Below are positions 6,566-35,002 of a stretch of DNA of 45,900 nucleotides, piece by piece. A model generated the notes under the pieces. The model did no database searches. It worked only from the letters and a program-made list of their open reading frames with translations, and had not been told where the DNA came from. Position 1 is the stretch's first letter, and every line of letters starts with the position of its first letter. Origin of the DNA: a virus; the UHGV virus genome UHGV-1347344; one strand, given 5' to 3'. Both the position numbers and the translations under genes were made by a program.

Positions 6566-8374
6566 TCAGTACCCGAATGCGCTGTCTACCTGCGCGGTTT
6601 GATTACGAAGTGCCGGAACCACTCCTTGGGCCATCCCTTCCGCATCCGTAGCCTGCGTATAGACCTTGACCTCACCCACATTGGTGGTTGACGTCATCTG
6701 ACGCGAATTATTGACGTTGCTCACGCTTCCCGGACGCGCATCCCCGGCGCGCACCTGCGGCGGCAGAATAGACGGGCGGACATCACCAACCCGCATCGAA
6801 TCGGCGACCCCGCCGGGCTTAGCCTCGGCCTTCGTTTCTTCCGGGCGCGAAGACTCATCGCCGCCGAGCCAATCCTTGATCCAGTCGTGAAGCAAATTGT
6901 AGAGCTTCTGGGCTACCCAGTTCAGCATTTCGACAAGCACATCATTGATTTTGGAGATGCCTCCCCAGATCGTTTTGAGGGCTTCGATAACGCCTTTTCC
7001 GTCCCGTGTAAGAACGGAGTTGAAGAGCTTGGCGACCCCCGAAAGGGCATCCCAGACGCCCCCGAGGATACTTTTGATGCCTTCCCAAATAGCCTTGAAA
7101 CGAGCCCCGATTTCATCGCCAGTTCCGAACATCGACCAGAGCCCGGAAAGTGCAGATTCTCCGCCTTTGATGTAGGTAATGAGATCGTCGACAACCAGCG
7201 CGATCGCGCCGATGCCCGCAATCAACGGCGTAAACGGCGCAATCGCAGCCCATGCCGCCGTCGCCATCGCGCTCAACGCCGGGAGCATGAGCGTCGTAAT
7301 GACCCCGGCTAACGCCGTAAAGAAGACGATCACGAACTGCTTGTTTTCTTTCACCCACCCGAGGAGATCGCCGAGCAGTTTCGTCAAAAACGTGATCGCA
7401 GGGGAGACGGTGCTGGCGAAAAGGGCTGAGATGGCCTCCCATGCGTCATTGAGCCGCTGCTGCGCCTCCCGTTGCTTCTTCGCGTTTTCGATGTCCTGCT
7501 TGCTGTAGATGGCTTGAGCCTTCTGGACTTTCAGAAGCTCCTCAATCCCTTTGCGGCCCTTGAGGATGAGCGGGATGGTTTTTTCGTCGAAGCCGATCTG
7601 CGTGAGGATCGAGGTCGCCTTCTGGCGGTCGATTTTTGACGTGGCGTCGGAAAGCCGAAGAAGCCCTTCTTCAAAGGAAACGGCCTTCCCTTTCGCATCC
7701 GTGAAGCTCACCCCCAGGTCTTTGGTCGCGTCCTTAAGCGGCCCGGAGTCGTGCAAAATGAGATCCTGCATCCAGTCGCCCAGATCCATAAACCGAGTCG
7801 AAAGTTCCTCGGCGTCAACCCCGGCGGCGGCTGCCGTCCGTTGCCATGCCTGCCAGTCTTCAATGCTCATGCCGAGCGCGTCCGAAGTCTTCTCGATAGC
7901 CTGAGCCTGCTCGTAATACTGCGCTACGGAGCTTTTCAGGATGGAGACGCCGCCGATGACGGCGAGGGCCTGCGCTGCCACGCTCTTGAGCCGTTCAAAG
8001 CCAAACGCGCCTTTGTCCGCCGCGTCTTCCAGCGAAACGCCCAGTTTTTTCGCTGCATCATCAAGGGCCTCAAGACGTTCTTTTGCCGCTCCGGTGCGGA
8101 TAAGCCCCTCGCGCATCCGCTGATACTCTTTCGTCACCTCGCTGATTTCGCGGCCTTTTTGCACGGCTTCCTCAAAGGCGGCTTGCAACGAAGATGCGGC
8201 ATCGGCAGACTGGTCAAGCCCTTGGGCCCCCTTGACGCCTGCGTCATATGTCGCGCGCCCCGCGTCAACGGCTGCGGCCTGCACGCCGTCCAGTCCTTTT
8301 TGGGCGTTCTGCACTTGAGCTTTGAAAGCCCCTGCGGAGAGGATGAGGGAAACGACGAGTTCACCTGCGTTCAT
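6566..8374 (-). CDS. tail tape measure protein
   Basis: 602 aa with long coiled-coil segments plus an Ala/Gly-rich hydrophobic core (FFTALAGVITTLMLPALSAMATAAWAAIAPFTPLIAGIGAIALVV). Follows the G/GT chaperone pair. Confidence 0.85.
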   Translation of the reverse strand: MNAGELVVSLILSAGAFKAQVQNAQKGLDGVQAAAVDAGRATYDAGVKGAQGLDQSADAASSLQAAFEEAVQKGREISEVTKEYQRMREGLIRTGAAKERLEALDDAAKKLGVSLEDAADKGAFGFERLKSVAAQALAVIGGVSILKSSVAQYYEQAQAIEKTSDALGMSIEDWQAWQRTAAAAGVDAEELSTRFMDLGDWMQDLILHDSGPLKDATKDLGVSFTDAKGKAVSFEEGLLRLSDATSKIDRQKATSILTQIGFDEKTIPLILKGRKGIEELLKVQKAQAIYSKQDIENAKKQREAQQRLNDAWEAISALFASTVSPAITFLTKLLGDLLGWVKENKQFVIVFFTALAGVITTLMLPALSAMATAAWAAIAPFTPLIAGIGAIALVVDDLITYIKGGESALSGLWSMFGTGDEIGARFKAIWEGIKSILGGVWDALSGVAKLFNSVLTRDGKGVIEALKTIWGGISKINDVLVEMLNWVAQKLYNLLHDWIKDWLGGDESSRPEETKAEAKPGGVADSMRVGDVRPSILPPQVRAGDARPGSVSNVNNSRQMTSTTNVGEVKVYTQATDAEGMAQGVVPALRNQTAQVDSAFGY

Positions 8375-14982: not shown

Positions 14983-15363
14983 ATGGATTTTTCGGAAAGA
15001 ATTGCTGAATTGTCGAAAGTAGAGATAGAGTCCGAAGATACCCCACAAGGAAAAGAGCTGGATTCGCGTATAGTCACCACCGAGGAAGAAAAAGAGGCGT
15101 ATTACCTTGTCAAATCGCTTCTGGTGGGCACCGTTGATCCGGCCCGCGTAGCCATGCGGGACAGCATCAGCTACTGCTCCATCCTTCTTGACGACAACAG
15201 GCTCAAGCCTCTGTGCCGCCTGTATTTCAACGGAAAACAGTGGAGGGTCGGACTGTTTGATGGGGAGAATAAAGACGCAAAGGAAGACATCGAAAAACTG
15301 GAAGATATTATCCCCTTTGCGGATCGAATCCGGGCTACGGCCTTGAAATACGATAACAAGTAA
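14983..15363 (+). CDS. hypothetical acidic cytoplasmic protein
   Basis: 126 aa with RBS GGAGAGAGGA; part of the AT-rich cargo island. Confidence 0.5.
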   Translation: MDFSERIAELSKVEIESEDTPQGKELDSRIVTTEEEKEAYYLVKSLLVGTVDPARVAMRDSISYCSILLDDNRLKPLCRLYFNGKQWRVGLFDGENKDAKEDIEKLEDIIPFADRIRATALKYDNK

Positions 15364-17002: not shown

Positions 17003-17022
17003 TAAAGAAAGAATATCGTAGA

Positions 17023-17060
17023 AAAGGGGTGGCTTTAAGAGCCGCCCCTTTTTGTTTTTC
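17023..17060 (+). terminator. rho-independent terminator
   Basis: aaggggtggct-ttaa-gagccgcccctt stem followed by tttttgttttt. Confidence 0.7.
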
Positions 17061-17102: not shown

Positions 17103-17147
17103 TTTTTTGAAAAAATTGTTTATTTTTTCAAAAAATGGTGCTATTGT
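17103..17147 (+). promoter_or_regulatory. cassette promoter: 33-bp palindrome (TTTTTTGAAAAAAT-tgttt-ATTTTTTCAAAAAA) plus extended -10 TGcTATTGT
   Basis: Perfect 14-bp inverted arms at 17103..17116 and 17122..17135. TGCTATTGT at 17139..17147. RBS AAAGGAGAG precedes the ATG at 17181. Confidence 0.55.
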
Positions 17148-17180: not shown

Positions 17181-17537
17181 ATGATAACCATCACCACAGC
17201 CAACAACGAAACAACTCTTGAAAACGACAAGGCTTTCTGTGCATATCGTATCGAAACAGAAATCGATTTTGATGAAGATGGTTATGAAGTGGACGGAGAG
17301 CAATATGTGCTCATCGAAAAGCTTTTTGTTCCCTCAGAAAATCGCGGAAACGGCATTGCCCGCCGCCTTCTTCGTGAAGCCGTCTCTCACGCTCGCGCTA
17401 CTTACCCCAGAATGGCGATTAGGTTGGTAGCTGAACCTCTGGATGCCGATACAGATATGGATCGGCTGGTGGCCTTTTATGAAAGCGAAGGTTTTGATGT
17501 GATCGAAGCTGGCGAAATCGTAGTCATGGAACACTAA
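17181..17537 (+). CDS. small GNAT-family N-acetyltransferase
   Basis: 118 aa with acetyl-CoA binding motif A (LFVPSENRGNGIARRLL). Confidence 0.6.
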   Translation: MITITTANNETTLENDKAFCAYRIETEIDFDEDGYEVDGEQYVLIEKLFVPSENRGNGIARRLLREAVSHARATYPRMAIRLVAEPLDADTDMDRLVAFYESEGFDVIEAGEIVVMEH

Positions 17538-17557
17538 ACAGAACAAAGGAGTAAGAC

Positions 17558-17728
17558 ATGACCCGCTATTCTATCCTGCTCACGACTGGCACAACGGGAA
17601 CCATCGATACCGAACAGCATCTTGAAGAGGGCATGGAAGTAGTCATTACCTTGCACGATGAAAACGGAAACAGAACGCAGGAAACCGGACTCATCGCTGA
17701 AATTCTTGACGAAGAATTTTTAGGGTAA
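17558..17728 (+). CDS. small hypothetical protein (56 aa)
   Basis: Strong RBS AAGGAGTAAGAC before ATG. Product MTRYSILLTTGTTGTIDTEQHLEEGMEVVITLHDENGNRTQETGLIAEILDEEFLG. Below the ORF-track size cutoff. Confidence 0.5.
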   Translation: MTRYSILLTTGTTGTIDTEQHLEEGMEVVITLHDENGNRTQETGLIAEILDEEFLG

Positions 17729-17750: not shown

Positions 17751-18251
17751 ATGAAGCTATACCACGGAAGCATGATTGAACATCTGGCTATCTCTAACTC
17801 AGGAACAGGGTTAGGGTATAACTTCGGAGCGATGTTCTTTGCCCGTACTTACGGACATGCAAAGGAATACGGAAATTACGTCTACCAGTGCGAAATAGAC
17901 ATCAAGGACATCTTCTTGAACGAGGATCTCCCGTATCTTGAAGATGGCGCTGCTGGAACGGCTCTACGTGAAGTTATGGCAGAGCGCGGTATAGACGAAA
18001 AGTATTTTGATCTCTGCTGGTATGCCGTGGTTGAAGAGAAAATTGGTTATCAAGATGAAGACTGGGTAAACCTCCTCAACATGGACGACGATGACGCAAG
18101 TTGGGAGGCTCAGGCCATGCGGATCGCCTTTGCCCGTAAGCTTGGATTTAAAGCTGTGGAGATGGATGACGAATGCGGCAGCATTGCGGTTCTTCCCGAG
18201 TTCATAAAGCTGGAAGCGTCAACGGAGGAGGACGATGAAGAGGAAGACTAA
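17751..18251 (+). CDS. minimal PARP-like (H-Y-E class) ADP-ribosyltransferase domain protein with polyacidic C-terminus (putative)
   Basis: N-terminus KLYHGSMIEHLAISNSGTGLGYNFGAMFFARTYGHAKEYGNY parallels PARP catalytic LWHGSRTTNFAGILSQGL...[20 protein letters not shown] (H-G-S, then GYxFG..YFA, then Y). Candidate catalytic Glu in CWYAVVEEK. C-terminus STEEDDEEED. Confidence 0.45.
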   Translation: MKLYHGSMIEHLAISNSGTGLGYNFGAMFFARTYGHAKEYGNYVYQCEIDIKDIFLNEDLPYLEDGAAGTALREVMAERGIDEKYFDLCWYAVVEEKIGYQDEDWVNLLNMDDDDASWEAQAMRIAFARKLGFKAVEMDDECGSIAVLPEFIKLEASTEEDDEEED

Positions 18252-19626
18252 GATAGACATCGACGATCTTATCGATTTCAGTTCAAAGCTGGTGAACTCG
18301 AATTCCAGCATCGGTATTCGCTTGTCGTCGGGTGCCGCGCTCTCCCTTCCGTACCTGTCCACGAGGACATGTCTTGCGGCAGGGATTTCTATGCCGCTGG
18401 ATACGGCAAACGGGGCCAAGGATGTGGGAAAAGTAAGTGCTCTATACAAAACACTCGAAGAGGGGGAGGAAGGAGAGAAAGCAGATACAGAGGCGGCATT
18501 GAAGAAAATCCGTAAAACAGGATTTGCTAGAAAAACAGAGTCTGTCGACAGACGGATTCGTCAACTGCTCATTCCTAAAGACGTACCCTCTGGGTATGTC
18601 TCTTTGTCTCCCCTCCCCTCCATTGGACTTTCCGTTTTGCTGTTAGGAGCCGTTACAAGGCATAATCAAGATGTCTTTTCAAAAAAGAAGGAAGGTATCA
18701 AAATTCGACGGGCACATCTCGCTTTGGGCGGGGCAAACCCTCAGAATCTAGGATACGCTGCGTCCAAAAAGGCGATACAATATCCTATTTTTCTTTCTAC
18801 ACCCAAATCCGTGCGCGGAAATGCCAGCCGTCAGGCGTCAGGAAAGGGAACTTACCTGATCCTTTCCAATCTCTTTGTGCAAACGGCAAACATCTTGACG
18901 AATTATACTATGCTCAACGGCGCGCCCCTCTTTGCAGCATGGGGGATGGGACATGCACTGGAGCGCGAGATGCATGGTCCCAAGGTTACCGGAGTATGCC
19001 TTGTTGTGCATAGCATCGAACCCCTTGGGGAGCATGAAACCGCTATTTTCGAGCCTAGCCAAAGATTAGGAGCGGCTTTTACTTTTGAAAAATCCCGTAA
19101 CGGGAGCGACTACGCAAAAGGCTCCACACATCTCTCTTTGCAGCCCGGTGCAACGGGGCATATACGGGTAAGCCTTATCTTTGAACTGTCGGAAGCCCTG
19201 CATTCCGTACCGAACGCCGTGGATCTTTTCTTGAACTTCGGAAAGTTCTCCGGTGGGCTGATCACTTCATACGACGCCCCGGCTTTGCATGATGACCGCT
19301 CTACGCTTCTAGAGTGCATTCCCGCCGGGAAAGTTGTTTTGGATCGGCGCGACGTTATGAGTCCTGGAAACCCCATTGAACAGCTTGTAACCGCGATAGG
19401 AACGTACAGCGGAAAATGGCTGTCCGCAACGAATATCGGTTTTTCAGCAATCACAGACTTTCAAGTTCGCGGAGGGGCACGGAACGGACATCTTCATGCC
19501 TTTGCCGAGCCGCTGATCGGCATTACAGAATACGTCTCTACTGAAAAGAGGATACACGGGTATTTCTGGCGCAGCCAGTGGGAAGAAGATAGCTTTTTGA
19601 TGAGGGGAGATTCAACAAATGAATGA
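18235..19626 (+). CDS. 463-aa protein of unknown function (partner of the ART-like gene)
   Basis: Overlaps the upstream gene by 17 nt and the downstream gene by 8 nt (operonic). No P-loop, HEPN, nuclease or macro motif recognised by eye. Confidence 0.65.
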   Translation: MKRKTKIDIDDLIDFSSKLVNSNSSIGIRLSSGAALSLPYLSTRTCLAAGISMPLDTANGAKDVGKVSALYKTLEEGEEGEKADTEAALKKIRKTGFARKTESVDRRIRQLLIPKDVPSGYVSLSPLPSIGLSVLLLGAVTRHNQDVFSKKKEGIKIRRAHLALGGANPQNLGYAASKKAIQYPIFLSTPKSVRGNASRQASGKGTYLILSNLFVQTANILTNYTMLNGAPLFAAWGMGHALEREMHGPKVTGVCLVVHSIEPLGEHETAIFEPSQRLGAAFTFEKSRNGSDYAKGSTHLSLQPGATGHIRVSLIFELSEALHSVPNAVDLFLNFGKFSGGLITSYDAPALHDDRSTLLECIPAGKVVLDRRDVMSPGNPIEQLVTAIGTYSGKWLSATNIGFSAITDFQVRGGARNGHLHAFAEPLIGITEYVSTEKRIHGYFWRSQWEEDSFLMRGDSTNE

Positions 19627-19840
19627 TGCACAAGAAAAAAAGCAGGGTGGACGCCGTAAAGGATCTGGACGTAAAAAAAGGGTTGAAAATCGTGCAACAG
19701 TAAAGACTGTATCTATGCCGGATCATGTCTGGGAACGGCTGAACGATGTATGTACGGATAGGGGTATCCTACGCTCACAGGTAGTACGGGAAGCAGTCGA
19801 GATGTGGCTGGACGCAAATATACAGCAGCTTGGAAAATGA
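19619..19840 (+). CDS. ribbon-helix-helix (CopG/Arc-like) DNA-binding protein
   Basis: 73 aa with a basic N-terminus, beta-strand ATVKTVSMPDHVWERL then helices SQVVREAVEMWL. Last gene before the terminator. Confidence 0.6.
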   Translation: MNDAQEKKQGGRRKGSGRKKRVENRATVKTVSMPDHVWERLNDVCTDRGILRSQVVREAVEMWLDANIQQLGK

Positions 19841-19857
19841 CGCCTGATACGTAAAGA

Positions 19858-19893
19858 AAGCCCCAACCGTTAAACAGGCGGTTGGGGCTTTCG
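19858..19893. terminator. bidirectional rho-independent terminator between convergent cassette and capsid operon
   Basis: Perfect 10-bp stem gccccaaccg / cggttggggc with a 9-nt loop, flanked by A-run and T-run. Confidence 0.75.
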
Positions 19894-28213: not shown

Positions 28214-28598
28214 TCTCTTTAAAAGCCTCCCGCGTCAGCTTAAGCAATTCATCGGAGGAAAGATGGGAAAGATCAAGTGCTGGTGCAGGCGACATCGTTC
28301 TATCAGAACTGGAAAGATCAATTTTTTGAATCTCTCGCCATCCCATACGAGTCTTTGCCCAGAAAATAAGAGCGGTTGTGTCACCCGACATAGCTTTGTC
28401 GAAGAGCCGCTTTCCAACTTTCACATTAGCGTTGGTTCTTCCTGTGATAAGCTCCTGCTTATAGAGCTTCACCATCGTATCAACAGACATACCAATCTTT
28501 GCTGCGATTTCATCTTGCGGTACTCCGTATTGAGCCATTGCCTCAACAAGCGCCGCCTTTGTTCCAGATCTTTTTATCGCAGGTCTACCACCGCTCAT
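28194..28598 (-). CDS. terminase small subunit (HTH)
   Basis: 134 aa overlapping terL by 20 nt. HTH-like AAKIGMSVDTMVKLYKQ. Confidence 0.6.
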   Translation of the reverse strand: MSGGRPAIKRSGTKAALVEAMAQYGVPQDEIAAKIGMSVDTMVKLYKQELITGRTNANVKVGKRLFDKAMSGDTTALIFWAKTRMGWREIQKIDLSSSDRTMSPAPALDLSHLSSDELLKLTREAFKENERNDG

Positions 28599-29542
28599 AG
28601 AACGCCTCCGAGCAGGTTGATGTAGTACGGAATCGTTAGTTCAAGCCCCTCATCCAAGCTCGTTGTCGGCTTGAATCCCAAAAGAGCGGACGCTTTTCCA
28701 ATATCAGGAACGCGCCGCGTGGGGTCGTCGTCAGGAATGGGCCGGAATACGATTTTTGATGACGACCTGACTTTTTCGATTATAGTCTTGGCAAGCTCCA
28801 AGATCGTGATTTCTTCGGGGTTTCCAATATTTACCGGACCCGTGATATGACTATCCGACTCCATCAGCCGGACAATCCCTGATATCGTATCGCGCACAAA
28901 ACAAAACGAGCGTGTCTGAGAACCATCCCCGTATACGGTTATATCCTCACCCCGCAAGGCTTGGCAGATGAAGTTAGGAATAACCCGACCATCGTTTATC
29001 GACATCATGGGGCCGTAGGTGTTGAACAGACGCACAACCTTAACCTTGATCCCCTCTTCCCGGTAAAAGTCGAAGAAGAGACTTTCTGCGCAGCGTTTCC
29101 CCTCATCGTAGCAGGCTCGGATGCCGATGGGGTTGACGTTGCCTCTATCAGTCTCTCGCTGAGGCGAAACTAGTGGCTCGCCATATACTTCTGATGTGGA
29201 TGCCTGCAAAACCGTCGCACCATGTACCTTGGCAAGCTCCAGTATATTCAATGCCCCAAGTACGCAGGTCTTTGTAGTCTGAATTGCATTTTTGCCCTGA
29301 TAGTTTAAAGGGCTTGCTGGACATGCGAGATTGTAAATTTCGTCTATATGCTCAGAAGCCTCAAAAGGAGAACAAATATCATGAAGAAAGAACTGAAAGT
29401 TTTTGAGCCGATTGGGGATATTATTAATATTTCCGGTTGAAAGATCGTCTATGCAGATAACCTTGTGTCCTTTTTTAAGCAATTCCCTGCAAAGATGTGC
29501 TCCTAAAAATCCGGCACCACCTGTTACGAGACTTGTTTTCAT
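28595..29542 (-). CDS. uxs: UDP-glucuronate decarboxylase (UDP-xylose synthase family SDR)
   Basis: MKTSLVTGGAGFLGAHLC…NYQGKNAIQTTKTCVLGALNILELAKVHGATVLQASTSEVYG…NPIGIRACYDEGKRCAESLFFDF…VRLFNTYGP closely parallels UXS/ArnA-C (GxxGxxG, YxxxK). Low GC. Confidence 0.85.
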   Translation of the reverse strand: MKTSLVTGGAGFLGAHLCRELLKKGHKVICIDDLSTGNINNIPNRLKNFQFFLHDICSPFEASEHIDEIYNLACPASPLNYQGKNAIQTTKTCVLGALNILELAKVHGATVLQASTSEVYGEPLVSPQRETDRGNVNPIGIRACYDEGKRCAESLFFDFYREEGIKVKVVRLFNTYGPMMSINDGRVIPNFICQALRGEDITVYGDGSQTRSFCFVRDTISGIVRLMESDSHITGPVNIGNPEEITILELAKTIIEKVRSSSKIVFRPIPDDDPTRRVPDIGKASALLGFKPTTSLDEGLELTIPYYINLLGGVL

Positions 29543-30408
29543 GAATCCGCCTTTTGGTATCGAGGGGAAAGGATTTTGGGCGTGCAGTGATTCCAAGAGA
29601 TTTTATGGTGGTATCGCATATACGTATCTTTGAGCGTCGATATTTTCACAGCAGATGGGCACATCATGACAGTATAAAAACTTTTCATATATGTACCATT
29701 TTCAAGATACATATCGGTCAGCCCACCAGCTTGAGATTGTGTCTCAGCTTGATTGATGCACGTATTCCCGAACGAGAAAAACAGCTTGCCCCGATGCCCC
29801 AGAGTGACATACGTGTTAACGTCATCATTCATACGTCCAACGAACTTGAAAGGGCGTAATGTCTTGCAAAAAAACGCGTTCATGGCTTTTCGTTTCACAG
29901 CCAATTTGGGGGAATCAATAGCCCCACCAATGAAATCGCCATTCTGCATAAAGCAGACGCTTAAAGATGGAGTTCTTTCTAAAAAATCTAGATAGGCATC
30001 GAAGACATCATCGAGGCATTGTGGGTATACATATTTCAAGACGCCATCTTTTGCATATCTGTGCTGGAACGAGTCATAATCATCGTCAAGTTCTAAGAAA
30101 AAATCGAGTCCCAAGCCCTCGGCTATTTTGTGACACATATTTCTAGCAAAAAGGACCGTATTTTTCTTCTGGATATTATCACCACGATCAGTAAATCGTG
30201 CTGCATCTTCCTTACAAAAGCGGATCACTTCTTTACCATACCGACGAATATATTCATCACCTGTCGTATCTTCATCATCAATAATGAGGTAAATGGGGCC
30301 TGTATATCCATGCTTTCGGAGTGAACGATATGTTTGCTGATTCTGAGGGCGTCCATACGTAAGTATAAAGCAAGCAAATTTTTCATGCCTCATCGTTCTT
30401 ATCCTCAC
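29539..30408 (-). CDS. putative glycosyltransferase (DxD-type)
   Basis: 289 aa with FILTYGRP and LELDDDYD motifs. 4-bp overlap with the uxs-like gene; AT-rich. Confidence 0.45.
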   Translation of the reverse strand: MRIRTMRHEKFACFILTYGRPQNQQTYRSLRKHGYTGPIYLIIDDEDTTGDEYIRRYGKEVIRFCKEDAARFTDRGDNIQKKNTVLFARNMCHKIAEGLGLDFFLELDDDYDSFQHRYAKDGVLKYVYPQCLDDVFDAYLDFLERTPSLSVCFMQNGDFIGGAIDSPKLAVKRKAMNAFFCKTLRPFKFVGRMNDDVNTYVTLGHRGKLFFSFGNTCINQAETQSQAGGLTDMYLENGTYMKSFYTVMMCPSAVKISTLKDTYMRYHHKISWNHCTPKILSPRYQKADS

Positions 30409-30685
30409 GGATTAAGGCATCTCGAAGTTCATCTATCTGGGAAGAGAGCTCAACAAACCCGTTTTCAATCGCATTATCAATGTCGATGATAACAAGGGCT
30501 GACTGCTCCATAAGTCGCTGCATTTCAGGGGATGCGTTTGCGTAGTACTCTGCGATGTTCTCGTAGTTGAAAACCGTATGCCGATGAGCAGCCGCGAGAA
30601 GAAAGGCTTTTTCTTTCGGAGAAACGGTTGAGTCATGAATGGCCTTTGGCGAGTTCATTATCCTTTGTCTGGTCGTACAGTTCAT
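30383..30685 (-). CDS. hypothetical protein
   Basis: 100 aa, first gene of the low-GC sugar moron; start uncertain. Confidence 0.35.
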   Translation of the reverse strand: MNCTTRQRIMNSPKAIHDSTVSPKEKAFLLAAAHRHTVFNYENIAEYYANASPEMQRLMEQSALVIIDIDNAIENGFVELSSQIDELRDALIREDKNDEA

Positions 30686-31154
30686 CTACGCAAACAGATC
30701 TACCCGTAGGCTCATATATGGGGGTTGTGGCTTTCGCTGTGTACTTATCTTCTACGGGAACATCTTCTTGGGGCTCGAAAAGCTCAGCCTCAAAACCGAT
30801 AAGATCAGTATCAAAATCGGCTAGTTTGAGCTCTTCAAGCTCAAGGGCCAAAAGTTCGTTGTCCCATTCAGCCCAGTTTGCGGACTGATTGGCAAGCAGT
30901 CGAAAAGCCTTGACTTGAACATCACTCAACTCGTCGGCAAGAGCCACAGGGACATCTTTCAAGCCGAGTTTCTGAGCTGCTTTCAGGCGCAGATGTCCAT
31001 CAACGACGGTGCCATCGGACTTAGCGACAATGGGGATACGGAATCCGAACTCCCGGATGGCCGCACACATACGATCAACCTGCGCATCATTTTTGCGCGG
31101 GTTCCTTGCGTAAGGTATCAATCGCTCAATAGGCCATTGCTCGACATTCAGCAT
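30633..31154 (-). CDS. ParB-like nuclease domain protein
   Basis: 173 aa, IERLIPYARNPRKND…VVDGHLRLKAAQKLG (ParB N-terminal / sulfiredoxin-like fold). Confidence 0.65.
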   Translation of the reverse strand: MLNVEQWPIERLIPYARNPRKNDAQVDRMCAAIREFGFRIPIVAKSDGTVVDGHLRLKAAQKLGLKDVPVALADELSDVQVKAFRLLANQSANWAEWDNELLALELEELKLADFDTDLIGFEAELFEPQEDVPVEDKYTAKATTPIYEPTGRSVCVDELYDQTKDNELAKGHS

Positions 31155-34152: not shown

Positions 34153-35002
34153 TTCTGTATACCTCGTCGAGTTTCAAAACCTGTTCCGCAAAATCGCCGC
34201 GTTCCGCCGCTTCCACCTGCCTCGCCGTCATAGGGGCGGCTCGCTGCTGGATAGGGCTCGACCTGCTGGCGTTGTTCTGCGCCCGGTCAAGCCATGAGTT
34301 CAGGAACCGCCGTACCCCAGTTTTTGTTTTCCGCTTCCGGGGATTGCTCAGGCACCACGCCCTGACCTGTGCAAGCTCACCAGCCACGTCTACCCCCGGA
34401 TAAGCTGCAGCGTACTCGCTGGCCAAAGATGCGGGGACCGGAAACTCGGAACCGTCAGCAAGCGGGATCATGGCTACAGACTGTTCCTGCTCACCTTCCG
34501 GTTCCGGCGCCGAGGATGCGCCAGCATCGCTCTGCGCAAGATCTGTCTTTCTCTCTTCTTTCTTACTTTCTTTCTTTATATCTTTCTTGTTTGTGGCCCT
34601 CTGCTGGCCCTCTGCTGGCCCTCTGCTGGCCTCTTGCTGGACCTCCTGCTGGCCTTTCTGTTGGCCTTCCGCTGGCCTTTCATCTTGGTATCTATGCCAA
34701 TTTAAAAAAGAAACTACTGTACATCTGTTGGTCGATCTGCTGGACACAATTTCGAGTTTTTTGAGCAGTTCAAAAGCTGTTCTTACCTGCTTTTCACTCA
34801 ACCCCAGATCAGAGGCTGCCTTAGCTCGTCCAAAGATGACTTCCCCCGGCTCAAGATCAAAGACCATGCCCGCAACGATTTGACGATGGTGACGGTATGT
34901 AGTCTTGAGCAACAGGTAGCCAAAGAGCTGCCACGCGGGGCCGTTTTGGAGCAGCCCGCTATCTAGGCATTTCCGCCAGAGCTTGACATATCCTTGTTCC
35001 AT
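34031..35002 (-). CDS. replication initiator (lambda O / DnaD-like winged-helix N-terminal domain) containing the origin iterons
   Basis: N-terminus YVKLWRKCLDSGLLQNGPAWQLFGYLLLKT…. The central low-complexity part is encoded by tandem 11-12 bp repeats. RBS GGAGACAA. Confidence 0.55.
   Translation of the reverse strand: MEQGYVKLWRKCLDSGLLQNGPAWQLFGYLLLKTTYRHHRQIVAGMVFDLEPGEVIFGRAKAASDLGLSEKQVRTAFELLKKLEIVSSRSTNRCTVVSFLNWHRYQDERPAEGQQKGQQEVQQEASRGPAEGQQRATNKKDIKKESKKEERKTDLAQSDAGASSAPEPEGEQEQSVAMIPLADGSEFPVPASLASEYAAAYPGVDVAGELAQVRAWCLSNPRKRKTKTGVRRFLNSWLDRAQNNASRSSPIQQRAAPMTARQVEAAERGDFAEQVLKLDEVYRNGEFAAFGSGTQQGVCALSAAEARAGGIRVAGQDLGRRVG
34595..34681. repeat. iteron array: about 7-8 tandem copies of GGCCCTCTGCT-like 11-12-mer, flanked by AT-rich stretches; candidate ori
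   Basis: Three perfect ggccctctgct copies then ggcctcttgct, ggacctcctgct, ggcctttctgtt, ggccttccgct. AT-rich 34550..34593 and 34690..34775. Confidence 0.6.

Follow-up and report, generated by a model that had tools for sequence, protein, structure and literature searches.

The window analysed here is the whole stretch of 45,900 nucleotides of the UHGV virus genome UHGV-1347344, which belongs to a phage whose host is Bilophila wadsworthia, a carrier of a CRISPR-Cas system that is of type I-F. It contains an operon with the order operator/promoter, GNAT gene, 56-aa gene, AcrIF11-like gene, Cas8f–Cas5f fusion gene, ribbon-helix-helix (RHH) gene and terminator. The features of this cassette, together with a protospacer located elsewhere in the window, are the following:

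7788..7819, + strand: protospacer of a Bilophila sp. type I-F spacer (27/32 positions, 5'-CC PAM)
17021..17053, + strand: intrinsic-terminator-like hairpin, a 15-bp stem followed by a T-run (inverted repeat I2)
17103..17135, + strand: palindrome pair TTTTTTGAAAAAA and TTTTTTCAAAAAA (14-nt inverted repeat without mismatch) that overlaps a promoter-like site
17181..17537, + strand: GNAT acetyltransferase, 118 aa, first gene of the operon (Pfam Acetyltransf_7, E 1.9e-7)
17558..17728, + strand: 56-aa protein that accompanies the GNAT gene across loci (ORF list, related loci)
17751..18251, + strand: AcrIF11-family ADP-ribosyltransferase homolog, 166 aa, first noticed as an ADP-ribosyltransferase (ART)-like gene (PF26151, PDB sequence matches)
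18235-19626, + strand: Cas8f–Cas5f fusion gene, an ATG-initiated ORF of 463 aa
18235..18813, + strand: aa 1-193 of the fusion, homolog of the Cas8f (Csy1) N-terminal domain (PADLOC, host alignment, conserved columns)
18814..18849, + strand: aa 194-205, short linker VRGNASRQASGK in place of the helical bundle of Cas8f (~168 aa) and of the cas8f/cas5f gene junction
18850..19626, + strand: aa 206-463, full-length Cas5f (Csy2) homolog (Pfam, PADLOC, host identity, Foldseek)
19619..19840, + strand: RHH protein, 73 aa, last gene of the operon (weak Pfam RHH_1/RHH_3; PHROG transcriptional repressor)
19856..19892, no strand assigned: perfect 37-nt hairpin, bidirectional terminator (sequence; self-inverted BLAST match)

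The ATG of the 463-aa ORF lies directly 3' of GGAGGAGGA, and the gene overlaps both neighbours, as the original prediction had stated, by 17 nt with the upstream 166-aa gene (17751-18251) and, downstream, by 8 nt with the 73-aa gene (19619-19840). Records exist of a 99%-identical protein on 326 contigs, the full length is retained by relatives down to 60% identity, and dN/dS is ~0.2 for the Cas8f-like half and likewise for the Cas5f half. Thus, the ORF is a real gene and not a chance reading frame, and it is under purifying selection.

The C-terminal half of the product is a Cas5f protein in its full extent. The homology spans residues ~206-457; Pfam Cas_Csy2 (PF09614) matches with 41.5 bits, above its gathering cutoff of 25, and the PADLOC Cas5f model aligns with aa 208-453 over model positions 1-249/254 (E 1.8e-21), so that the curated threshold is exceeded and the whole domain is covered. 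This half shares 40% identity with the Cas5f of B. wadsworthia ATCC 49260, and 52 of the 91 Cas5f columns conserved among host proteins are identical across all 7 phage proteins. Among the Foldseek matches in the PDB, each of the top 23 is either a Cas5f chain or an I-F3 Cas8/5 fusion, with E values from 1e-8 to 6e-4. The query was the AF2 model of the fusion, which was built from a 38-sequence alignment, has a mean pLDDT of only 50 and is usable for the Cas5f half only; the fold of the N-terminal half is thus putative. What the gene lacks is the setting of a genuine cas5f, i.e., an operon with cas7f, cas6f, cas2/3 and an array.

Homology to the Cas8f (Csy1) N-terminal domain extends over residues ~9-193. 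The PADLOC Cas8f model matches aa 10-193 with an E value of 1.3e-20 over model positions 27-216/401, and the identity to aa 41-252 of the B. wadsworthia ATCC 49260 Cas8f is 35%. The conserved-column analysis revealed that this half retains the motifs of the clade (NSN, RxRQ, GGxNP(Q/H)N and P..P), that GGxNP(Q/H)N and other motifs of the domain are present in every phage copy, and that most of its host-invariant columns are identical in 7/7 phage proteins. The conserved first ~30 residues of the host Cas8f are absent, and the alignments show that the Cas8f-like part stops directly past P(L/I)F..(A/T)P, a conserved motif. This end corresponds to a domain boundary. The AF2 model of the host Cas8f (pLDDT 82), which matches the Cas8f chains of Pseudomonas aeruginosa PA14 over their full length (6ne0_A, E 7e-6), places the boundary at aa 243-248, with a linker of low confidence (aa 243-245) followed by a domain made up entirely of helices (aa 248-414, pLDDT >90). 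The host alignment to the fusion ends there, and the helical domain has no counterpart anywhere in the 463 aa. In PA14, the N-terminal domain of Cas8f together with Cas5f makes up a stable heterodimer by which the crRNA 5' end is anchored, while the helical bundle bears the helix that recruits Cas2/3 (Rollins et al., bioRxiv 10.1101/453720). The fusion therefore contains the former domain and is devoid of the bundle that carries this helix.

K247-N250 of PA14 probably has its counterpart in the GGxNP(Q/H)N motif, the NPQN of which is N168-N171 in the fusion. This equivalence is suggested by the position of the motif ~20 aa before the end of the domain and by the Lawsonia variant GGSKPQN, its sole supports, since the sequence mapping onto PA14 failed: profiles of 7 and 40 Cas8f sequences gave no PDB Cas8f match, and neither did an Acinetobacter Cas8f used as query, a protein of the same clade. 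The Cas8f clade to which the fusion belongs is too divergent for such a match. The N-terminal half is closest (~44%) to a class of 375-382-aa Cas8f proteins of Desulfovibrio-type genomes and not to the B. wadsworthia Cas8f, so that the primary target could be another I-F variant.

The original prediction had described the product as a beta-rich orphan of a probably uncharacterised family, without P-loop, HEPN, macro or nuclease signature. The domain search indeed gave zero matches of these four kinds, but the structure and remote-homology check that had been advised identified the Cas8f N-terminal domain and Cas5f, and the AF2 model, of low confidence, is mixed alpha/beta. With matches to Pfam Cas_Csy2 and to both PADLOC models, and with the name 'type I-F CRISPR-associated protein Csy2' already attached to the protein at NCBI, this is a known Cas family, functionally uncharacterised only in its phage-specific fused and truncated form. 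No match for the fusion protein was obtained in PHROGs or in the phage GenBank collection.

The gene that overlaps the start of the fusion encodes a protein with a precomputed Pfam assignment to PF26151 (AcrIF11_ADP_ribosyl). Its best PDB matches are 8DWQ (3.4e-6, full length) and 6KYF (AcrF11, 7.6e-4), both of them AcrIF11 structures (PMC13131331), and its C-terminal VEMDDECG motif aligns to both. These matches identify the gene as an enzyme of an anti-CRISPR family and not as the toxin of a toxin/sensor cassette. The substrate of AcrIF11 is Cas8f, which is modified only in the assembled complex, and the Pseudomonas enzyme is active alone (PMC12421852). The proposed tie between both genes thus holds in that they are co-transcribed and functionally linked, but its nature is different from that first proposed, since the fusion is a homolog of the complex that AcrIF11 targets. 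Nor is the pairing obligate: among related phage loci, both genes are unlinked or in a different order in L009, the fusion is present without the ART gene in L011, and the ART gene is present with the fusion deleted in L035 and L037. The two families co-occur in loci of the P0001 and P0007 types.

The remaining genes and signals also fit an anti-CRISPR operon. The hairpin at 17021..17053 would putatively end the upstream transcription unit and insulate the cassette, and the hairpin at 19856..19892 separates it from a convergent capsid gene. The TTTTTTGAAAAAA and TTTTTTCAAAAAA palindromes have no other exact copies in the window (expected 0.09), are conserved 5' of the cassette in the loci of related phages, also where the GNAT gene is absent, and constitute a candidate operator for the RHH regulator. 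The GNAT gene is variable, missing from L029, L032, L033 and L037. The RHH domain is kept at the end of the operon in L011 (59% identity), and the 73-aa protein is a candidate Aca-type autoregulator, for which Aca14 provides an RHH precedent (PMC13551039). With an AcrIF11-family gene overlapping the fusion, an RHH regulator and an operator, the layout is that of an acr-aca operon.

The host I-F locus comprises cas2/3, cas8f, cas5f, cas7f, cas6f, cas1 and an array. The protospacer at 7788..7819, and the match of a Bilophila spacer in sister phages (29/32, also beside a 5'-CC PAM), provide evidence that the I-F CRISPR of the host targets this phage type. In addition, a solitary repeat lies ~100 bp away from the fusion gene in the sister loci L009-L012. 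It agrees with the host I-F repeat in 25/28 positions and keeps the hairpin, which is a second anti-I-F signature. Such a repeat was not found in the window when canonical or Bilophila I-F repeats were searched with up to 7 errors, nor with Rfam CRISPR-DR models or TRF, and the window has no array; tblastn detected no further cas homolog there.

In each of 12 related phage loci, the fusion gene is surrounded by phage or accessory genes; none of the related loci has cas7f, cas6f, cas2/3, cas1 or an array, and the cassette is located in phage accessory islands. Hence this is an orphan cas homolog that phages carry apart from cas operons and arrays. Two unrelated phage backbones share the cassette with 96.7-98.3% nucleotide identity, and it is deleted from some phages, i.e., the fusion gene is mobile between unrelated backbones and polymorphic for presence/absence. 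In a search of 1.84 billion representatives, a single 50% cluster covers both halves, and all other matches are separate Cas8f or Cas5f proteins with <=47% identity, which sets the fusion apart as a clade of its own that has diverged from bona fide Cas proteins. It documents the capture of a cas8f-cas5f pair from which a domain was then deleted.

The best explanation for these data, to which we assign a probability of roughly 60%, is that the fusion is a cas-derived anti-CRISPR of a B. wadsworthia phage, acting as a faulty Cascade tail module in the manner of AcrIB3 and AcrIB4. It would be a single-chain copy of the Csy/Cascade 'tail', i.e., the N-terminal domain of Cas8f fused to Cas5f. Its expression would be early, under a strong promoter with the RHH protein as probable repressor, and together with the AcrIF11-family ADP-ribosyltransferase. 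The fusion and its host counterpart Cas8f:Cas5f would be rivals for the 5' handle of the crRNA and for the Cas7f backbone, and the complexes containing it would be unable to present the 'nuclease recruitment helix' to Cas2/3 and may also close poorly on DNA. We propose that, without presentation of this helix, the phage DNA would remain undegraded. AcrIF11 might disable the complexes pre-assembled with host Cas8f while the fusion poisons the newly assembling ones. Incorporation into Cascade, loss of Cas2/3 recruitment, this division of labour and autoregulation by the RHH protein are steps that we infer. Productive binding of the fusion to host Cas7f and crRNA is plausible at 35-40% identity, given the 38% of AcrIB3, and residues relevant to assembly are preserved in both halves. 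As a counterpoint, a Cascade that cannot recruit Cas2/3 but still binds phage DNA could harm the phage.

Other functions have to be weighed against this one. The fusion could act by sequestration and not as part of a full defective Cascade: it would form dead-end subcomplexes in which the crRNA 5' handle, Cas7f or intermediates of Cas6f and crRNA are bound and titrated, and in sister phages it may cooperate with the RNA of the solitary repeat. We regard this as a possible but rather improbable mechanism. Cas5f and the Cas8f N-terminal domain are precisely the module that binds the crRNA 5' handle, the repeat-like unit adjoins the fusion gene in L009-L012, and there is a precedent in the Racrs, described as RNA anti-CRISPRs that imitate CRISPR repeats and occur as solitary units in viral genomes (PMC10651486). 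Against it, the window has no solitary repeat at up to 7 errors, and the conservation of Cas-family residues in both halves would suit full integration into the complex equally well.

It is unlikely, though conceivable, that the phage turns the host Cascade into a nuclease-free RNA-guided DNA binder, a natural dCascade used for silencing or for blocking competitors, blind to Cas2/3, perhaps loaded with the solitary-repeat RNA in sister phages, and representing an evolutionary intermediate, arisen on a phage, toward nuclease-free I-F3 or type IV-like systems. The Cas8f N-terminal motifs, including GGxNP(Q/H)N, are kept in all phage copies, the nuclease-recruiting domain alone has been removed, and the natural Cas8/5 fusions of transposon-associated I-F3 systems function without Cas2/3. 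However, the phage encodes no guide array, tniQ or effector partner, the co-operonic AcrIF11 should prevent this very complex from binding DNA, and the presence/absence polymorphism and acr-type regulation suit a plain inhibitor.

Marginally less credible still is that the fusion does not act on Cascade but serves the ADP-ribosyltransferase as a decoy, scaffold or regulator, e.g., presenting or absorbing its activity. The overlap of both genes in the window, the co-occurrence of their families in P0001-type and P0007-type loci and the fact that AcrIF11 requires assembled Cas8f as substrate (PMC12421852) are in line with this idea, but the association is not obligate, as judged from L011, L035, L037 and the gene order of L009, and AcrIF11 alone suffices in Pseudomonas (PMC12421852).

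The suggestion that an ART toxin has in this protein its antitoxin, its sensor or a partner that processes ADP-ribose is very improbable: beyond an overlapping, co-transcribed gene of ART fold nothing speaks for it, and an ART toxin-antitoxin or defence cassette was rejected since the ART belongs to the AcrIF11 family, its partner, a Cas8f/Cas5f homolog, carries neither a macro nor a NADAR nor a hydrolase signature, the two genes do not stay paired in related loci, and the cassette lies in phage accessory islands with acr-aca architecture. Equally improbable is a non-functional cas remnant or a component of a phage-encoded CRISPR-Cas system, in spite of the plain Csy2 annotation at NCBI and of phages such as ICP1 that carry whole I-F systems (PDB matches), because the dN/dS of ~0.2 and the ORF intact in 55-99% identical copies on hundreds of contigs speak against a decaying pseudogene, and the absence of cas7f, cas6f, cas2/3 and cas1 homologs and of an array from the window and the related loci speaks against a phage CRISPR-Cas system.

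To our knowledge, no cas-derived type I-F anti-CRISPR and no Acr that unites two Cascade subunits in one chain is known apart from this candidate. The literature search retrieved no recognisably cas-derived type I-F anti-CRISPR and no paper joining Bilophila, anti-CRISPR and I-F. If confirmed, a defective tail module of this kind would possibly be the first cas-gene-derived anti-CRISPR for type I-F, in which a Cascade tail devoid of the nuclease-recruitment domain offers a testable prediction of the point at which interference is blocked, and its architecture would be a natural design for nuclease-free I-F Cascade tools. It would also mean that two distinct anti-I-F weapons, the enzymatic AcrIF11 and a subunit mimic, are stacked under one regulator, and would open a view on the phage-host conflict in B. 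wadsworthia, a neglected and clinically relevant gut pathobiont. From a practical point of view, the public 'Csy2' label on the fusion can produce false CRISPR-Cas calls in prophages.

Compared with the Cas8f:Cas5f pair of the PA14 Csy complex (6NE0, 5UZ9), the parts retained in the fusion are exactly the 'tail' that binds the crRNA 5' handle. It differs from bona fide Csy1:Csy2 in being one chain without the helical bundle and the conserved N-terminal segment, 35-42% identical to the host copies, and encoded by a phage without other cas genes or an array. With the Cas8/Cas5 proteins of I-F3 CAST systems (6PIF, 6PIG, 6LNB, 9VTQ) it shares the order Cas8-then-Cas5, the operation free of Cas2/3 and weak matches in sequence and fold of the Cas5 portion. 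However, the I-F3 fusions have 510-695 aa, and their Cas5 portion starts ~60-180 residues further from the N-terminus (~260-270 of 511-521 or ~388 of 640, versus ~205 of 463 in the phage fusion); the PADLOC Cas85f models match only the last ~77 aa (aa 381-457), the I-F3 sequence matches in the PDB are weak and partial (E 0.0035 to 0.8), and no tniQ, tnsABC, cas7 or cas6 lies near the fusion gene. Neither a full-length model match nor the accompanying transposition and cas genes of I-F3 are thus present. Since its nearest relatives are the I-F1-type Cas8f and Cas5f of Desulfovibrionaceae, it is a fusion independent of those of I-F3.

AcrIF3 resembles the fusion in a strategy built on the interface between Cas8f and Cas2/3 recruitment, but it mimics the helical bundle and sequesters Cas2/3, whereas the fusion is everything but the bundle and is the one with clear Cas sequence homology. 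The operon has a parallel in Pasteurella multocida, where AcrIF6 and a Cas5f homolog are found in an acr-aca operon of the RHH Aca14 type (PMC13551039). Both arrangements have an AT-rich inverted repeat in the promoter, an in-operon RHH gene and a known AcrIF beside a Cas5f homolog, although for P. multocida the description speaks of a Cas5f homolog and not of a Cas8f-Cas5f fusion.

The closest precedents are two inhibitors of type I-B: AcrIB3, a Cas5 homolog (38% identity) without the hook element that replaces Cas5 in Cascade, and AcrIB4, a homolog of the C-terminal domain of Cas8b, which block DNA binding (Katz et al.). Table S3 of the same work lists orphan cas8f and cas5f matches in a prophage of B. 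wadsworthia 3_1_6 with the same spacing as in the fusion (Katz et al.). As AcrIB3 and AcrIB4, the fusion is a phage/MGE-encoded homolog of Cascade subunits (Cas5 and part of Cas8) with ~38% identity to their host counterparts, encoded by an orphan gene in an anti-defence locus, in a clade apart from bona fide Cas proteins, and proposed to act as a faulty subunit, as is proposed or shown for the two I-B inhibitors. In contrast to both, it belongs to type I-F and not to I-B and joins two subunits in one chain; it retains the N-terminal domain of Cas8 where AcrIB4 retains the C-terminal one, and it is devoid of the helical bundle that recruits Cas2/3. Because this bundle is missing, the block is predicted to lie possibly downstream of DNA binding, unlike that of AcrIB3 and AcrIB4.

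The gene located at 18235-19626 on the + strand, whose ATG start codon lies directly downstream of GGAGGAGGA, encodes a 463-aa protein, and this ORF is a real gene. As the original prediction had proposed, it overlaps both neighbouring genes, i.e., by 17 nt the 166-aa gene (17751-18251) and by 8 nt the 73-aa gene (19619-19840). There are 326 contigs on record with a 99%-identical protein, mostly human-gut assemblies, and full-length relatives were found down to 60% identity. The dN/dS ratio against the relatives (Nei-Gojobori) was 0.20 overall, about 0.21 for the N-half and 0.17-0.19 for the C-half.

The same prediction regarded the protein as an orphan, but it matches the Pfam family Cas_Csy2 (41.5 bits vs a gathering cutoff of 25) and the Cas8f and Cas5f models of PADLOC, and its NCBI record is named [quoted passage not shown]. 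The Cas8f match covers residues 10-193 (E 1.3e-20; positions 27-216 of the 401-position model), and the Cas5f match covers residues 208-453 and the model from one end to the other (E 1.8e-21; positions 1-249 of 254). In the alignments with genuine Cas8f and Cas5f proteins (A1, A4), the N-half aligns with the N-terminal domain of Cas8f and ends just past the conserved GG(A/S)NPQN...P(L/I)F..(A/T)P motifs; a linker of about 12 residues joins it to a complete Cas5f part, whose first residue is the counterpart of the host Cas5f start. Host-invariant residues are largely retained in all seven phage proteins. The AF2 model of the fusion is poor (pLDDT 50), and its top 23 PDB matches are throughout Cas5f chains or I-F3 Cas8/5 fusions. 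When 1.84 billion representatives were searched exhaustively with HMMER, both halves were spanned only by the fusion's own 50% cluster, all remaining matches being separate Cas5f or Cas8f proteins. The label "Csy2" on a phage fusion could cause spurious cas calls in prophages.

To define the missing part of Cas8f, the B. wadsworthia protein (P0038) was modelled from an 88-sequence alignment (mean pLDDT 82.4). In the model, an N-terminal domain of mixed alpha/beta structure is followed by a low-confidence hinge (aa 243-245) and then by an entirely helical C-terminal domain (aa 248-414, pLDDT >90). Foldseek matched it to Cas8f chains from P. aeruginosa Csy complexes along the full length of those chains (6ne0_A, E 7e-6; also 7yhs_A, 7jzx_A, and 5uz9_A). 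Taken together, the alignments and this model indicate that the fusion keeps the N-terminal domain and lacks precisely the helical bundle. Also missing are the first ~30 residues of host Cas8f, with a conserved W...Y segment among them. [quoted passage not shown] In this I-F clade (Bilophila, Lawsonia, Desulfovibrio, and some Acinetobacter; e.g., L019:5182-6444, L013:8643-10004, and L025:4838-6004), the Cas8f proteins mostly have no Pfam Cas_Csy1 match and are annotated as hypothetical proteins; no PDB relative was detectable by sequence, although the AF2 model matches PA14 Cas8f.

The fusion gene sits in a low-GC accessory island on the + strand, flanked by head and tail modules on the - strand, and its transcription unit has the following layout:

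17021-17053, terminator of the preceding unit
17103-17135, twin palindromes overlapping a promoter-like site
17181-17537, + strand, GNAT
17558-17728, + strand, 56-aa gene
17751-18251, + strand, ART-like gene
18235-19626, + strand, fusion
19619-19840, + strand, ribbon-helix-helix (RHH) protein
19856-19892, perfect hairpin terminator

The palindromes are absent elsewhere in the window (expected 0.09), and in related loci they are conserved ahead of the cassette. The precomputed Pfam family of the ART-like gene is AcrIF11_ADP_ribosyl, and its best PDB sequence matches are 8DWQ (E 3.4e-6, full length) and 6KYF. The GNAT acetyltransferase and the 56-aa gene (17181-17728) head this acr-type operon, the former reminiscent of the acetyltransferase anti-CRISPR AcrVA5. 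Both PDB matches are AcrIF11 structures (PMC13131331), and AcrIF11 modifies Cas8f within the assembled Csy complex by ADP-ribosylation of N250 and blocks DNA binding (PMC13131331, PMC12421852). In a sister phage (L011:5538-6200), an RHH domain 59% identical to the window protein forms the C-terminus of a 220-aa protein bearing three HTH-like repeats, which suggests that the operon regulator evolved modularly.

The window is of phage nature (major capsid, Mu-F-like, portal, terminase, and E217-like tail genes), and neither a homolog of host Cas2/3, Cas7f, Cas6f, or Cas1 nor a CRISPR-like repeat was found anywhere in it. The host B. wadsworthia ATCC 49260 (L019) encodes cas2/3, cas8f, cas5f, cas7f, cas6f, and cas1 together with an array of repeat GTTATCCGCCGTGTAGGCGGTTTAGAAG; identity to the phage protein is 35% for its Cas8f (N-half) and 40% for its Cas5f (C-half). 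The host Cas5f cluster is recorded on 816 contigs. Two of the 124 spacers from related I-F loci match these phages, both from Bilophila sp. (L015): one matches window positions 7788-7819 at 27/32 positions, for which the chance expectation in this search space is estimated at ~3e-5, and the other matches sister phages at 29/32. The matched sites outside the window are L005/L008:13520-13551 and L011:8104-8135. The protospacers of both spacers are preceded by 5'-CC, the type I-F PAM, and the mismatches could be escape variants.

The cassette is 96.7-98.3% identical in nucleotide sequence between two unrelated backbones, one E217/Mu-F-like and the other siphovirus-like (tape-measure gene, Phage_tube_2). 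The GNAT and 56-aa genes are missing from several cassettes that are nearly identical in other respects (L029, L032, L033, and L037). In three loci of the same phage type (L035:2444-5500, L037:2499-4476, and L036) the fusion gene is deleted except for about 13-18 codons at its start and 23-33 at its end, with the genes for the AcrIF11-like and RHH proteins still present; these natural variants show that the fusion is a dispensable accessory gene.

In the divergent lineage of P0007 (60% identity), AcrIF11 is absent or the gene order is different. About 100 bp upstream of its fusion gene, on the opposite strand, lies a solitary repeat-like unit, CTTATCCGCCGCGTAGGTGGTTTAGAAG, which has no similar counterpart in the window:

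L009:9688-9715, minus strand, solitary repeat
L010:9689-9716, minus strand, solitary repeat
L011:3134-3161, minus strand, solitary repeat
L012:5707-5734, minus strand, solitary repeat

It is identical to the Bilophila I-F repeat at 25/28 positions, a G-U pair preserving the hairpin, and it resembles the RNA anti-CRISPRs of PMC10651486 and is a candidate RNA anti-CRISPR (Racr).

Elsewhere in the window, a second low-GC island (28595-31154, GC ~0.45) encodes an NAD-dependent sugar epimerase/dehydratase, a ParB_N-domain protein, and a TET-associated glycosyltransferase (PF20691, E 5.8e-36). This gene set suggests that the phage DNA is hypermodified (glycosylated 5hmC-type), which would amount to a further anti-restriction or anti-CRISPR strategy. 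The match of the 126-aa ORF at 14983-15363 to an endonuclease PHROG is confined to the C-terminal third of that family, and the ORF appears truncated, since the sister phages L002-L004 have a 356-aa HSDR_N_2 protein at this place. A tandem array of about 7.5 copies of the 11-nt unit TGGCCCTCTGC (34594-34678) adjoins a (TCTT)n run (34542-34588).

The best-supported reading, to which we assign a probability of roughly 60%, is that the fusion is a cas-derived anti-CRISPR which imitates the Cascade tail in a single chain. It would compete with the host Cas8f:Cas5f during Cascade assembly, and a Cascade built with it would be unable to recruit Cas2/3; AcrIF11 would disable the complexes already holding host Cas8f, and the fusion would complement it. 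Sequestration of crRNA or Cas7f by its Cas8f- and Cas5f-like halves is rather unlikely. Repurposing of Cascade into a nuclease-free binder is improbable, and slightly more so is a role as accessory to the AcrIF11 homolog encoded next to it. We give very little credit to the toxin-antitoxin role first envisaged for this gene pair, and equally little to a non-functional remnant, a reading that the dN/dS of 0.20 argues against.

In the literature searched, the fusion protein is neither described nor tested, and no paper connects Bilophila, anti-CRISPR, and I-F. The orphan cas phenomenon itself has been published: Table S3 of Katz et al. lists hits in a B. wadsworthia 3_1_6 prophage, an orphan cas8f (36% identity) and cas5f (26% identity) 612 nt apart, an arrangement that agrees with the architecture of the window fusion. 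The novelty appears to lie in the fused architecture that lacks the bundle, in its combination with AcrIF11 under the control of an RHH regulator, and in the predicted mechanism. The RHH regulator at the operon's end and the AT-rich inverted repeat at its promoter resemble those of Aca14-type acr operons, one of which encodes AcrIF6 and a Cas5f homolog (PMC13551039). Direct precedents for a cas-derived anti-CRISPR are AcrIB3, a Cas5 homolog (38% identity) that takes the place of Cas5 in Cascade, and AcrIB4, which is homologous to the C-terminal domain of Cas8b (Katz et al.).
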